From a virus, in IMG/VR virus record IMGVR_UViG_3300030098_007301, positions 1-64,000 of that record: 64,000 bases of DNA, one strand, 5' to 3'. This document shows, in pieces, positions 9,181 through 21,379 of the stretch (position 1 is its first letter; every line of letters starts with the position of its first letter). The notes under the pieces are model-generated. The model saw only the letters and a program-made list of their open reading frames with translations, ran no database searches and had not been told where the DNA came from. The translations under genes were made by a program, and so were the position numbers.

Positions 9181-11823
9181 CTAGGACTGGGGTACTGAGT
9201 CAAGCTTTTTTATTTCACTTAATTTCATGTAAATTTTCTGGTCTTGAACTTTAATTAAGTCGGCAAAGATAGTATCTCCATCTTTTAGGGAGCCTCTAAC
9301 AATAACAATGCTCTTTTTTTCGGGGAGTTGGCCTCCGTTCATTTCACGGCATTCCTCAATGTTATCTTTTTGACTATTTGAAAAAATCATAACGGTGCAG
9401 GTAGAGGATTCGTCCTTAACCTGTATTTTGAACCAACCGTTACCCTTTTTACTTTTACCGGTGCCTAGCACCTCTTCGACCGTGCCGATAAAATTGACTC
9501 TAGAGTTAGCTCTCCGTTCAAGGCAGTCTTCTACGCTATCTAAATGAGAATAATCTTGATGAACTTCTTTTAGCTTTCGTCCATGAGTATATCCTAATAA
9601 GGCGTTCTCGTAGTACCAATTAGCAAAATCTTCATTAGCTTTATTCTTATTGTAAATTTCTCTATAGGGCGCGAAATGCTTACGAATAGTAGCCAACCTT
9701 GAGTCTTTGATGATTTGTTTGCCTTTATCATCTTTTAGCTCTTTATTCATCATCCCAACTATTTCCCTTAAATCATATTCTTTAGAAGAACCTACTTCAA
9801 AAGCGTATCGTTTTTCTCTGTCGGTTAAAATGTTCCAAAGTTGAGCTTCGGCTACCATGTAACTGCGTGGTTTATTAAATGTACCTTCTAATGCTCCAGC
9901 TTGAATCAAAGACGACAAAATTCCTATTCCGATACCAGCTTCGTTAGCTCCTTGGAAAACTTCAAATTTGTTAGAGTATTGGTCTTTAAAAGATTGTAGG
10001 GCCTCGATGGATTTTTCAGCGATTCCTTTAATAGACGTTAAGCCAAAGCGAATATCATTTCCCTCAATGCTGAACTCCATATCAGACTTCATTAAGTGAG
10101 GCGCGAGAAGTTTAATATTAAACTTAGGAAGCTCTCTAGCAATTTTTGATATTTCAACCATAGGATCTGGCTCATATCTAGTCATTTGTAGTAATGCTAA
10201 AAAGAATTCCTGTGGATATTTAAATTTTAAATAAACAGTAAGAGCGGCTAGTGATGCGTAAGAAATTGAATGAGACTTGTTAAAAGAATAATTAGCTGAG
10301 TCTTCTAGTACTTGCCACAAGATGTCTCCTATTTCTTTTTCTAGATTATTTTCTTTTACTTTATCTTTAATTTTCTTCTTCCACTTCTTGACTTCATTAA
10401 CCTTTTTCTTGCCAACGATGCGGCGTAGTATTTCCGCTTCATCTAAAGTAAATCCAATTTTGTGAGCCATCTTCATCATCTGTTCTTGGTACAAACAGAC
10501 TCCGCCCGTAGTTCCTAATATGTCGTCAAAAAATGGGTGGATGGCCTCATATACATCATTATTAGTATAATTGGCATACTGGTCAACAAAAGCTAATGCG
10601 CCCGGCCTTGCTAACGCTAGGACAGCGCTAAGTTCTTCTAAGCTTTTAGGTTTAACTTTGCGGCATACCTCGTAGTTAGCGTTTGCCTCTACTTGGAAAA
10701 TGCCGTGGCGGTATTTTAAATCGAAAAGTTTTTGATATATAAAAGGGTCATCTAAATCGATGTCTTCAGGAGTAATATCCATCCCTTTTGTCTTTTTGAG
10801 TATTTTGCAGCATGAATCAACAACCGAGGCGGTTCTTAATCCTAAGACATCGAGCTTTACATTAAACATGGATGACCAATCCATATCGTAAGAAGAAACG
10901 GGCTCTTTACTTGAATCTAATTCGCAAGGGCAGCTATCAACTAAATTACTATGGGACAATAACATAGCTGACGGATGAACTCCTTTATTTTTTACAAGCC
11001 CTCTTATTTTTTGCGCTATCTTGTATACTTTAGGGTTATCGTCACACCATTCCTTAAATTTAGGGACTTCATCGTAAGCTTCAGTTATATCTTTGACCTG
11101 TCCAAAAACTTTAGGTATTAATGCTGTAACGCCCGTCATCTCCGACTCCTCCTTGCCTCCAGCTACCTTGCCGCATTCTTTCATTACGAGCTTCCCGCTT
11201 AAAGTGTTAAGGGTTAGAATCTTGGACGTATTCCCGCTAAATTCTTTTTTAAGGTAGGATAGCACATCTTGGCGCCGATAATAACAAACATCAACATCTA
11301 CATCGCACATTAAAGACCCATCTAAATAGGTAACTCCATCTACTACTTTTTTCTTGGCTCTAGCTTTGGAGACAAACCTCTCAAAAAATAAATCATATTT
11401 AACTGGATCTATTTGCGTTATCCGAAGAAGGTAGAGAACCATACTTCCTGCGGCAGAACCCCTGCCTAGGCCTAGCGGGATATTGTTTTCTCGACAATAA
11501 GTTACTACTTTCCAGACTAATAAAATATATTCGGTGAAATCTAATTCTTTTAATATTGAAAGTTCGTACCTAACTCTATCTATATATAGTTTTTTCTTTC
11601 CGGATTTATCTAAACCTAGTTCAGAGAACCTTATTAAGCAAAGCTCTCTTAAAAAATCATAAGTACTTATATCCTCTTTTAGACCGAATTGTTGGATATA
11701 TTTAGGCTCAATCTCAAATTTAGGAAGTCTAACTCCGTGTAAATCTAAATTTATATTTTTAAAACTGGAAGCGAAACTATTCGCCTTTTTTACGTCGTTT
11801 TTTCTTGGGCTTCTTTTTGACAT
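9181..11823 (-). CDS. dnaE: DNA polymerase III alpha (DnaE-type), lacking the N-terminal PHP domain
   Basis: GRGSAAGS, LFFERF, DVDVD, KLDVLGL, YQEQ, YSFNKSHS, IRFGL, C-terminal OB fold. Confidence 0.92.
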   Translation of the reverse strand: MSKRSPRKNDVKKANSFASSFKNINLDLHGVRLPKFEIEPKYIQQFGLKEDISTYDFLRELCLIRFSELGLDKSGKKKLYIDRVRYELSILKELDFTEYILLVWKVVTYCRENNIPLGLGRGSAAGSMVLYLLRITQIDPVKYDLFFERFVSKARAKKKVVDGVTYLDGSLMCDVDVDVCYYRRQDVLSYLKKEFSGNTSKILTLNTLSGKLVMKECGKVAGGKEESEMTGVTALIPKVFGQVKDITEAYDEVPKFKEWCDDNPKVYKIAQKIRGLVKNKGVHPSAMLLSHSNLVDSCPCELDSSKEPVSSYDMDWSSMFNVKLDVLGLRTASVVDSCCKILKKTKGMDITPEDIDLDDPFIYQKLFDLKYRHGIFQVEANANYEVCRKVKPKSLEELSAVLALARPGALAFVDQYANYTNNDVYEAIHPFFDDILGTTGGVCLYQEQMMKMAHKIGFTLDEAEILRRIVGKKKVNEVKKWKKKIKDKVKENNLEKEIGDILWQVLEDSANYSFNKSHSISYASLAALTVYLKFKYPQEFFLALLQMTRYEPDPMVEISKIARELPKFNIKLLAPHLMKSDMEFSIEGNDIRFGLTSIKGIAEKSIEALQSFKDQYSNKFEVFQGANEAGIGIGILSSLIQAGALEGTFNKPRSYMVAEAQLWNILTDREKRYAFEVGSSKEYDLREIVGMMNKELKDDKGKQIIKDSRLATIRKHFAPYREIYNKNKANEDFANWYYENALLGYTHGRKLKEVHQDYSHLDSVEDCLERRANSRVNFIGTVEEVLGTGKSKKGNGWFKIQVKDESSTCTVMIFSNSQKDNIEECREMNGGQLPEKKSIVIVRGSLKDGDTIFADLIKVQDQKIYMKLSEIKKLDSVPQS

Positions 11824-14459: not shown

Positions 14460-15337
14460 GTTAAAATTTCTGATGTTGTCATGCATCCAAAGTCATTTTT
14501 TGGGGGCAAGTTTATAGACACTTGATGATCGTCAAAGAAGTTAAGAAGTTGTGATTGTATTTTCTCTGCCGCTTGGTTACCAGCGTCCGAGTTGTTAGAG
14601 TCGTTGTTTAAGCAAATATGAATTTTTTTTACTCCCAGAGATATTAAAATTGATTTTATCTTGGAGGAGGCAGTTAAGCCAAATAAAACTAAAGTATTTT
14701 TTATGCCCGCCTCCCATAGGGAAAGCATATCTCCTATACTCTCTATTAAAAATACGGAGCCCTTTTCTTTTATGTGGTGCTTGTTATATTTAAATGGATA
14801 AACCCAATATTTTTTATCACCTAGTAACTTCCATTTCATTTGATGTTTACCAGTTATGTCTCTACCAGCTACTCCGACTAGGTTATCCATTTTGTCAAAT
14901 ATAGGGAAAACGTAACGGTTAGGCATTTTACCTGAAGTCATTACCCCACATTGAAAATTACTAAGAGTTTTAGAGGATATACCTCTATTGTTCCAATAGG
15001 TGTCATCTTTATTTATACTATCTAAGTTCTTTTTGTTAAATAACTTCCTATCTCTAATTTTTTCTTTTACTATTTGCTTATGTTCAAAAGTAAAATTTTT
15101 ACTGATAAAGTCTTTAGCGTCAGATATATCTTTTAGCTTTAGAGTTATTTGAACTAAATCTTCTAGGCTCCCATGTTTGCTTGTTTTGAAATCAAACCAT
15201 ACTCCAGTTTCTTTTTGGATGCATAGTACATTGGGATTATCGGAGTCCCTGTAAAGTGGCTTAGTTCTATATTCTTTACCGCAGTCTCGGAGATTGTATC
15301 CTATCTCGCTTAAAATGTCTCTTACTTCGTCACTCAT
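14435..15337 (-). CDS. dnaG: DNA primase (DnaG-like Toprim)
   Basis: RYVFPIFD, VAGR, LIESIGD, NND..AG; upstream of the helicase. Confidence 0.8.
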   Translation of the reverse strand: MSDEVRDILSEIGYNLRDCGKEYRTKPLYRDSDNPNVLCIQKETGVWFDFKTSKHGSLEDLVQITLKLKDISDAKDFISKNFTFEHKQIVKEKIRDRKLFNKKNLDSINKDDTYWNNRGISSKTLSNFQCGVMTSGKMPNRYVFPIFDKMDNLVGVAGRDITGKHQMKWKLLGDKKYWVYPFKYNKHHIKEKGSVFLIESIGDMLSLWEAGIKNTLVLFGLTASSKIKSILISLGVKKIHICLNNDSNNSDAGNQAAEKIQSQLLNFFDDHQVSINLPPKNDFGCMTTSEILTWQKQIKA

Positions 15338-19900: not shown

Positions 19901-20252
19901 ATTTAATAAAATCTTTAAGGGTTCTTATTTTTCTAGTAATTTTTTTATCTTCGCCGTGCGAAACATCCCCTATATCGTATTGTTTAGGGGGCTTCAAGTC
20001 AAGAGAAAACTTAGCGAACTCTATCTCAAGGTATGTTTTGCCCTGAGGGCCGATAAACCAAGCCAAGCTGTCCATATCAAATTTAAGCGGTAATGCTTTC
20101 CAAAACGCTTTTAATGGATATTTTTTGATAAGATCTTTGGTAAATTTCATCTCCCTCGAGATAAAAACTTTGTTTTTCCAAATCTCTTTTCCTAAAAATT
20201 TATTAATTATGAATTGGTTTAAGGTTTGCTTGCGCTTCCTTTTCGCCGCCAT
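19872..20252 (-). CDS. Hypothetical protein
   Basis: 126 aa ORF heading the recA operon. Confidence 0.65.
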   Translation of the reverse strand: MAAKRKRKQTLNQFIINKFLGKEIWKNKVFISREMKFTKDLIKKYPLKAFWKALPLKFDMDSLAWFIGPQGKTYLEIEFAKFSLDLKPPKQYDIGDVSHGEDKKITRKIRTLKDFIKYGGKKEEGN

Positions 20253-20258
20253 GAAATA

Positions 20259-20287
20259 ATTATGCCGCTCGCGGGGAGAATAATCAA
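20259..20287 (-). promoter_or_regulatory. Sigma70-like promoter, probably leaderless
   Basis: TTGATT-N17-CATAAT, ATG 6 nt downstream. Confidence 0.55.
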
Positions 20288-20297
20288 CCTTAAAATC

Positions 20298-20347
20298 TAG
20301 TATAGGGTTTATAAAACGCTTTTAAGCGTAGGACTTTTAAAATACTA
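20298..20347 (-). ncRNA. Orphan dual-spacer stem-loop unit G
   Basis: TAGTAT-A-gggttta-TAAA-ACGCTT-tt-AAGCGT-A-ggacttt-TAAA-ATACTA, same architecture as units A-F. Confidence 0.75.
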
Positions 20348-20350
20348 AAA

Positions 20351-21379
20351 TTAAATTGATCTGATATCATTCTCCACCATGCGAGTGACTAAATCTTTAA
20401 AAGAATATTCAGGCTTCCAGCCCAACTCTTCTCTGATTGGGTTAGAGTCTCCGTACAAAATATCTACTTCACAAGGGCGATAAAAATCTTCGTTTATAAC
20501 AACGAGCGGATCTTTATCGAGCGAGCATACGTATTTCTCCTCTAAATCTTCTCCTACCCATTGCCCTTCAATGCCTGCTGCGTTAAAGGCTACTTCGATA
20601 AATTCTTTTATCGTATGAGTCTCATTGCTGGATAAAATATATTCTTTTGGGGTTTCTTGATTCAACATCTTCCAAACTCCATCTACAAAATCTTCAGAGT
20701 CAGACCAATCCCGCTTAGAGTTGATATTTCCAAGCGGGATCGGATCAAACTCCTTCCCTTGGTCCATCGCCCGAGAAATCCGAGCAACTCCCTTGGTAAT
20801 TTTTCTAGTAACAAACTCCTCGCCTCTGCGAATACCTTCATGGTTGTATAAGATGCCATGAATGGCAAAGAGTCCATAAGATTCCCGATAGACTTTTACT
20901 AGGTATCTAGAAGCTACTTTTGAAACGCCATAGGGGCTCCGAGGCTTGGGTGGGTGAGCTTTGTCTTGGGGGCTGTAGTCTACATCTCCCATTTCTTCGG
21001 AACTTCCGGCGCTGTAAAATCTACACTTAGGCTGATATCTCCTAATAGCCTCAAGGCAACGAATTGTGCCTACGGCGTTAGTGTCCATTACATGCTCTGG
21101 CATATCCCAACTACAACCCACAAAAGAATTAGCTGCAAAATTTATAAAATAATCGGGTTGTATTTCTTGAACTAATTTAGCTATTGAGAAACTGTCTGTT
21201 AAATCTCCATATACTAATTGAAATCTTTCGTTATTAACAAAATCCTTACAGTTTTCTAAGTTGATGTTAGAAGAACGGCGAGCCATACCAAAAATTAGAT
21301 AATCAGTTTTCTCTAAAAGATAGTCCACCATATTGGAACCATCCTGACCCGTAATACCCGTAATTAAAACTCTAGACAT
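20351..21379 (-). CDS. gmd: GDP-mannose 4,6-dehydratase
   Basis: ITGITGQDGS, PRSPYGVSK, NHEG.RRGEEFVTRKIT, RDW. Confidence 0.95.
   Translation of the reverse strand: MSRVLITGITGQDGSNMVDYLLEKTDYLIFGMARRSSNINLENCKDFVNNERFQLVYGDLTDSFSIAKLVQEIQPDYFINFAANSFVGCSWDMPEHVMDTNAVGTIRCLEAIRRYQPKCRFYSAGSSEEMGDVDYSPQDKAHPPKPRSPYGVSKVASRYLVKVYRESYGLFAIHGILYNHEGIRRGEEFVTRKITKGVARISRAMDQGKEFDPIPLGNINSKRDWSDSEDFVDGVWKMLNQETPKEYILSSNETHTIKEFIEVAFNAAGIEGQWVGEDLEEKYVCSLDKDPLVVINEDFYRPCEVDILYGDSNPIREELGWKPEYSFKDLVTRMVENDIRSI

Follow-up and report, generated by a model that had tools for sequence, protein, structure and literature searches.

Our question was what a solitary guide-like unit is doing in the short gap between the GDP-mannose 4,6-dehydratase gene (gmd) and the recA operon of a phage, many kilobases away from the gene that most similar units surround. 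The window that we analyzed is a 64-kb stretch of a large marine tailed phage with genes for a DNA polymerase, RecA, a tubulin-like protein, GDP-mannose dehydratase, ribonucleotide reductase and tail proteins. RNA-guided TIGR-Tas systems, which have arrays of dual-spacer guides, were described in 2025 (Faure et al. 2025, PMC12045711), and their natural targets, the origin of their spacers and the biogenesis of their guides are stated open questions. We consider it likely, with a probability of about 0.7, that the lone unit is a solitary stem-loop-type tigRNA gene of a TIGR-TasR-like system of this phage. This reading is supported by four observations: the unit has the anatomy of the array units, it folds on the transcribed strand only, it is conserved among strains, and its fast-changing letters are confined to specific positions.

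The lone unit and its surroundings

The lone unit (Table 1) sits in a 98-bp gap that runs from the gmd stop codon (20351) to the start (20252) of a 126-aa ORF heading the recA operon. The minus strand is the coding strand for both of the flanking genes, and on this strand the parts follow each other in the order outer stem, UUUUA-N7-UA, inner hairpin, UUUUA-N7-UA and outer stem. This two-stem structure is the minimum-free-energy RNA fold of the unit, with a z-score of -3.2. The first-pass annotation of this DNA had placed a unit with the spacers AAAGUCC and UAAACCC here, on the transcribed strand of a gap of about 100 bp between gmd and the recA operon, at 16 kb from the effector gene, and had noted an inner stem, ACGCTT/AAGCGT, in common with one of the array units. 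The sequence agrees with all of this. The unit shares its inner stem letter for letter with the one at 2101-2158, and the distance to the 577-aa gene is 16.3 kb.

Given that the unit starts directly after the gmd stop codon, it would form the 3' end of the gmd operon transcript. We rejected the idea that it is an intrinsic terminator, since the terminator scan made no call there. On its other side lies the promoter of the 126-aa ORF, whose -10 element ends 6-7 nt before the ATG without a Shine-Dalgarno sequence (window 20252-20290, minus strand; L001:5610-5650; L003:5590-5650). As this is the case in three lineages, the recA operon probably starts with a leaderless mRNA.

Table 1. Positions of the lone unit, its parts and related features in the 64-kb window.
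Feature	Position	Strand	Evidence or remarks
Solitary stem-loop tigRNA-like unit	20295-20350	-	sequence, 65.4-bit model score, RNA fold, conservation in L054-L063
Lone unit, outer stem arms (TTAGTA, TACTAG)	20343-20348 and 20297-20302	-	
Lone unit, loop strand A (TTTTA-AAAGTCC-TA)	20329-20342	-	
Lone unit, inner hairpin (CGCTT-AA-AAGCG)	20317-20328	-	
Lone unit, loop strand B (TTTTA-TAAACCC-TA)	20303-20316	-	
GDP-mannose 4,6-dehydratase gene (gmd)	20351-21379	-	Pfam PF16363, E 1e-107
Sigma-70-like promoter TTGATT-17-CATAAT of 126-aa ORF / recA operon	20259-20287	-	just downstream of lone unit; equivalents in L001 and L003
577-aa TasR-like gene	2217-3950	-	RuvC domain (D128, E218, D277, D280) and helical C-terminal domain
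Upstream array, three units	4033-4228	-	4172-4228, 4110-4166, 4033-4089
Downstream array, three units	2039-2218	-	2162-2218, 2101-2158, 2039-2095
Dispersed unit upstream of 270-nt non-coding stretch	32175-32232	-	61.9 bits; spacer-specific differences in L092
Dispersed unit downstream of 270-nt non-coding stretch	31864-31921	-	58.9 bits; A-U to G-C compensatory change in L092

A family of nine units

The lone unit is one of nine in the window, all on the minus strand, as are all the genes from 1 to 31.7 kb. Three units lie on either side of the 577-aa gene, two more at 31.9-32.2 kb, and all nine are found at gene or operon boundaries. A strict unit pattern has seven matches on the minus strand of the window and none on the plus strand. 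Dinucleotide shuffles of the whole window contain on average 0.24 strict matches (at most 2 in 300 shuffles), and those of the intergenic DNA 0.03 (at most 1 in 1000). The first-pass annotation had allowed that the pattern might be equally common in shuffled intergenic DNA; we see 7 where 0.03 are expected. The half motif TTTTA-N7-TA on its own is not enriched, with 36 copies on one strand and 35 on the other.

In an alignment of eight units 93% of the stem cells pair and 9 of the 11 stem pairs have changed on both sides, a level that none of 500 shuffles reached and that slid controls also fell far below. G-U pairs occur four times in the unit stems and A-C pairs never, which assigns the fold to the transcribed minus strand. 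Each loop strand is exactly 14 nt long (TTT + TA-N7 + TA) in all nine units, and the two halves of each unit match in their boxes save for single degenerate positions in three units (TG, TTTTT and CA). The first box D of the unit at 31864-31921 reads CA in the window and TA in L092. A covariance model built from eight units recovers the ninth (2162-2218), which had been left out of training, and gives its top score to the lone unit (E 2e-11).

Two other readings of the motif were tried and dropped. TTTTA-N7-TA followed by TAYACT as a -10 element might have been a promoter, which is at odds with the covariation of both stems and with the unenriched half motif, and pairing between the two loop strands proved inconsistent among units when checked by hand. 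The Rfam scan of the window gave nothing at gathering thresholds and sub-threshold noise alone at 31.65-32.32 kb, no tRNA genes were found in the window, and scaffold pattern scans for units in viral and metagenome contig sets returned no matches. A promoter-like TTGACA-17-TACACT lies between the downstream-array units 2101-2158 and 2039-2095.

The 577-aa protein

The protein encoded between the two arrays has no Pfam match and no PHROG match. Its only close relative in a word-indexed search is a single 90%-identity cluster, and we found no close TasR relative in IMG/VR. An exhaustive HMMER search gave 125 remote homologues, mostly of 340-410 aa, with the consensus D..E.AH..KSDxNDPxAI; the motifs of their alignment are V.D.G, E.AH, KSDxNDPxAI and ARSN. 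Among 81 homologues E218, H221, K275 and S511 never vary, and D128, D277 and D280 hardly do. When the profile was compared to solved structures the best match was TasR 9mty_A at the KxDxND motif, a weak one (E 0.17).

Structural modeling yields a RuvC domain and a helical domain, most similar to IS110 bridge recombinases and TIGR-TasR. The AlphaFold model has a pLDDT of 77 and a pTM of 0.74, and its top 11 Foldseek matches are all bridge recombinases, IS621 or ISCro4 (E from 5e-3). In VIA-align it scores Z 8.2 against IS621 across both domains, with 237 residues aligned. The RuvC domain taken by itself aligns to residues 6-112 of 9mty_A with 23% identity and an rmsd of 2.9 A; at Z 7.4 this alignment outranks generic RuvC folds. 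Tas proteins have a Nop-type RNA-binding domain at the C-terminus. The C-terminal domain of the phage protein modeled alone has no significant Foldseek match, and TasH/TasR reach only Z 3.3-3.4 with it. From the register of the structural alignment we infer that D128 corresponds to the catalytic D11 of TaTasR, and to judge by the sequence the RuvC acidic residues appear intact. Residues 1-115 form a long Pro/Thr-rich extension at the N-terminus, modeled with low confidence; neither this extension nor the insertions of the phage protein occur in homologues of about 350 aa.

Orthologues that are 41% and 31% identical are found at the same position, between a 171-aa gene and a cupin gene, in related phages, and these too are flanked by units or by single-loop versions of them. 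It follows that the gene is a resident of this phage group and not an insertion sequence. Two relatives that are 90-100% complete (G001 and G002, 144 and 170 kb) have neither a match to the unit model nor one to the protein, so that protein and units are absent together, an empty result that is weak when taken alone.

Assignment to stem-loop TIGR-Tas

In the stem-loop class of TIGR systems variable palindromes replace the edge repeats and the processed RNA is one hairpin unit; TIGR box motifs may diverge, with the two halves co-varying (Faure 2025, PMC12045711). According to Xu et al. 2026 (bioRxiv 10.64898/2026.09.09.750476), stem-loop units are about 54 nt long, a hairpin may occupy the loop that separates the spacers, and arrays can flank tas on either side or on both; the detector of that study takes 14-nt intervals, with 3 nt for box C, 9 nt for the spacer and 2 nt for box D. 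The phage units resemble those of PlTasA, PateTasR and CsTasR in all of these respects. They are about 52-57 nt long and have two spacers each between box C and box D. The box-spacer-box interval is 14 nt, the palindromic stems are variable and covary, and a hairpin stands in the loop between the spacers. They form arrays on both sides of a gene for a RuvC-plus-helical-domain protein, and systems of this type have been found in phage. The system of the lone unit is thus of a known kind, stem-loop TIGR-Tas (Faure 2025; Xu 2026), and given the match in loop-strand length and unit anatomy we file it as a stem-loop TIGR-TasR variant with non-canonical boxes.

There are also differences from the published stem-loop systems. 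The phage boxes are UUU(UA)/UA and not CNA/YG, which means that the published finder would probably miss these units. Since boxes may diverge and yet co-vary (Faure 2025), we take this as a feature of the variant and not as a disqualifier. Only 7 letters vary in each phage spacer compared to the 8-12 published, the protein is larger (577 aa, with its disordered N-terminus), and its RuvC acidic residues are intact whereas the two characterized stem-loop TasRs are inactive. Lastly, three of the phage units lie 16-28 kb from the gene, singly or as a pair, whereas published guides cluster near tas. An array beside the tas gene is what we see for the six units at 2039-4228, but not for the lone unit and the pair at 31.9-32.2 kb. 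Orphan units are not mentioned in the published TIGR-Tas accounts that we examined, and compared to these accounts three things are new: phage units that stand alone at 16-28 kb from tas, the UUU(UA)/UA boxes, and position-specific spacer turnover.

Other RNA-guided systems share some of these traits. The dual-repeat TaTasR (PDB 9mty) has the RuvC domain closest by sequence (23%) and the KxDxNDxxxI motif in common with the phage protein, but the phage units have neither conserved edge and loop repeats nor a 36-nt unit, and stems take the place of the repeats. The IS110 bridge recombinases IS621 and ISCro4 are the best whole-chain structural matches (Z 7.8-8.2), and bridge RNA likewise has a guide on either strand of an internal loop that separates two helices. 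The phage gene, however, is not mobile and multi-copy, and its RNAs have one loop and are arrayed, in contrast to the single two-loop bridge RNA. The IS110 Pfam domains (DEDD_Tnp_IS110 and Transposase_20) match neither the 577-aa protein nor 10 of its homologues, and PF01548 matches weakly in only 2 of 81 homologues (E 0.005). With archaeal box C/D sRNAs and dispersed or intronic snoRNAs the units share both the layout (terminal stem, box-guide-box, internal loop or stem, box-guide-box, terminal stem) and the scattered placement in UTR-like positions. They differ from the sRNAs in having no RUGAUGA/CUGA boxes or K-turns and in a target that is presumed to be DNA, and none of the partners fibrillarin, Nop5 and L7Ae were seen.

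This phage lineage bears on three points: the detection of guides, the evolution of spacers and the state of the nuclease. Single TIGR guides can be spread over the 3' ends of operons that are unrelated to one another, much like snoRNAs, and can use box motifs that current array finders do not seek. It is for these two reasons that some Tas proteins described as lacking an array may have guides elsewhere. As to the nuclease, the lineage provides a phage stem-loop TasR with apparently intact nuclease residues.

Conservation across strains and relatives

The 98-bp gap and its lone unit are kept in 10 contigs from Tara and other marine metagenomes, with three alleles of the unit among them. One allele differs at position 3 of spacer A. 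Another, in L057, has 7 of the 14 spacer letters changed (3 in spacer A and 4 in spacer B) together with a compensatory change of the inner stem from CGCCT/AAGCG to TGCCT/AGGCA. Further away, the gap also holds a unit in L040 and L004 (RecA 88% identical), and there the two halves both have TTTCA boxes, which is the symmetric co-variation expected for a dimeric binder. In the other relatives (L001, L003 and the remainder of L001-L052) no unit is present in this gap. Taken together, the sequences indicate that the lone unit is evolutionarily maintained.

Comparing the locus among related phages had been suggested in the first-pass annotation, along with the idea that the units are themselves mobile. 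The comparison finds the unit retained in the 10 contigs and in L040 and L004 and missing from the other relatives. This patchy presence speaks only weakly for mobility, and there is no sign that the units move autonomously. In L001 (RecA 90% identical) the place where the unit would be, between an upstream 358-aa gene and the small ORF heading the recA operon, holds three copies of YTTACTGAR at a spacing of about 57 nt (L001:5440-5590), a repeat that differs from the unit motif.

Fast-changing spacer letters

In strains that are about 95% identical to the window, the differences within the two intergenic arrays are almost confined to N7. We summed the minimum number of changes between strains at each loop position over 14 loop strands. 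The five positions of TTTTA have 0, 0, 0, 0 and 1 changes, the N7 positions 20, 16, 20, 2, 2, 12 and 7, and the closing TA 1 and 1. The remaining intergenic DNA has 19 changes in 359 columns. Across all 14 loop strands, N7 positions 1-3 and 6-7 thus change about 10-25 times faster than the surrounding intergenic DNA, with positions 1-3 at about 25 times, and positions 4-5 are nearly fixed. The lone unit has the same spacer-specific hypervariability as the array units. A coding explanation of the variable positions (3+1) was rejected, since the two halves are 26 nt apart and would fall in different frames, and there are stop codons as well.

The number and order of the units are constant across strains and identical alleles are seen in many samples. 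The change of spacers is a rewriting at the level of lineages and not a constant scrambling. Many environmental strains with units fixed in number and position, and with spacer positions rewritten at 10-25 times the background, are direct comparative evidence on how TIGR spacers evolve. Possible causes of the fast change are diversifying selection on specificity or self-inflicted mutagenesis. In the published 9-nt frame the fast N7 positions 1-3 are spacer bases 3-5, beside the reported cleavage position.

One form of self-inflicted mutagenesis, which we regard as a long shot, is that the TIGR-Tas system itself diversifies the spacers in place. TaTasR cuts single-stranded DNA that matches one spacer (PMC12045711). 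Every tigRNA is fully complementary to the template strand from which it is made, and N7 positions 1-3 lie next to the 'fifth base' at which TasR cuts. Occasional self-nicking of exposed array DNA followed by error-prone repair could then rewrite exactly these letters. If true, this would explain the origin of TIGR spacers without adaptation genes, and lone units in other operons would add guides that evolve on their own.

How the lone unit could work, and alternatives

As a tigRNA gene, the lone unit would be transcribed with the gmd operon, at the 3' end of its mRNA. In the first-pass annotation such guides were proposed to be cut out of mRNA UTRs, as snoRNAs are, and to act in trans. A dimer of TasR could bind the two pseudo-symmetric pairs of box C and box D of the unit, and trimming by host RNases could leave a particle of about 55 nt. 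Its spacers would pair with opposite strands of a DNA target, which TasR, with its RuvC acidic residues intact, may bind or cut. Single guides in different operons could in this way tie the supply of guides to different transcription units.

We found no credible match to a DNA target within the 64-kb window, where the 9+9-nt spacers give none with up to 3 mismatches in 18 nt. The DNA polymerase gene does contain a perfect 14-nt match (window 11500-11513, minus strand) to the unit at 4110-4166, with its spacer B taken as reverse complement and joined to its spacer A. Over the configurations tried about 0.06-0.1 such matches are expected. As a self-target it was rejected, because its arrangement is opposite to the one implied by the 3' overhangs of TaTasR and because L090 has the same site with 4 spacer letters different. 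The match is probably a coincidence.

The alternative that survives best, though we think it unlikely, is that the unit is a cis-acting RNA element of the operon boundary. It could be a processing, 3'-end-stabilizing or insulating signal, possibly bound by TasR, whose variable letters have no role as a guide. This would suit a unit that lies exactly between the gmd stop and the next promoter, the location of all units at gene or operon boundaries and the UUUU that follows the inner hairpin. It leaves unexplained, however, why defined loop positions change 10-25-fold faster next to fixed neighbors and why both boxes have changed symmetrically in L040. The lack of a call by the terminator scan and the close relatives with no unit in the same gap are further points against it.

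Clearly less probable is an action at the DNA level, with the units as folded single-strand recombination sites or cassette boundaries of an IS110-like recombinase and the lone unit as an empty or solo site. The structural likeness of the whole protein to bridge recombinases, the invariant Ser511 in its C-terminal domain, the patchy presence among relatives and the way that units bracket discrete segments (the 577-aa gene and the 270-nt stretch) could all be read like this. An insertion sequence is not what the gene resembles, however, being single-copy and syntenic with orthologues 31-41% identical, and the protein has no Pfam IS110 Tnp domain. The units have one loop compared to two in bridge RNA, and their number and position are stable across strains with only the spacers changing.

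It is very improbable that the lone unit arose by duplication of an array unit and is now non-functional and in decay. Such a duplicate might, like the lone unit, occur once and far from the 577-aa gene, with an inner stem identical to that of array unit 2101-2158. A decaying copy, though, would hardly score best of all units or remain intact in 10 contigs, among them L057 with its compensatory double change, nor would it recur at the same site with both boxes changed together in a lineage whose RecA is only 88% identical; purifying selection is already evident. A chance match, or an ordinary promoter or terminator, is practically out of the question, since neither the AT-rich genome nor the half motif with its even strand counts can account for a full pattern seen 7 times on a single strand against 0.03-0.24 expected and for the covariation of both stems, and a chance origin of the units is excluded.

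Dispersed units elsewhere

That guide units are dispersed, as the first-pass annotation had proposed, is borne out by the pair at 31.9-32.2 kb and by two units in a sister strain. In this strain, L090, the two further units (L090:14458-14577 and 14585-14640) lie 2.7 kb downstream of tasR and directly precede a tRNA-like sequence. The corresponding stretch of L064, which is the window's own strain, has no unit. The two extra units beyond tasR suggest that dispersal is a habit of the lineage. For the pair at 31.9-32.2 kb, the spacers of the window and L092 differ at about half of their letters, and both stems change in a pair-preserving way.

This pair brackets a 270-nt non-coding stretch (window 31922-32174, minus strand) with 0 of 270 differences to L092 compared to about 5 expected. 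A promoter-like TTGACA-17-TAAAAC is found at about 32234-32262, and a strong hairpin with a T-run terminator at about 31740-31775. The stretch has no Rfam match and a fold z-score of only -1.7; by its sequence it is a candidate conserved non-coding RNA. In L078, where the TasR-like protein is 31% identical, single hairpins with a 14-nt loop TTTTA-N7-TA and a GTG/CAC closing stem adjoin a normal two-strand unit (L078:900-1070).
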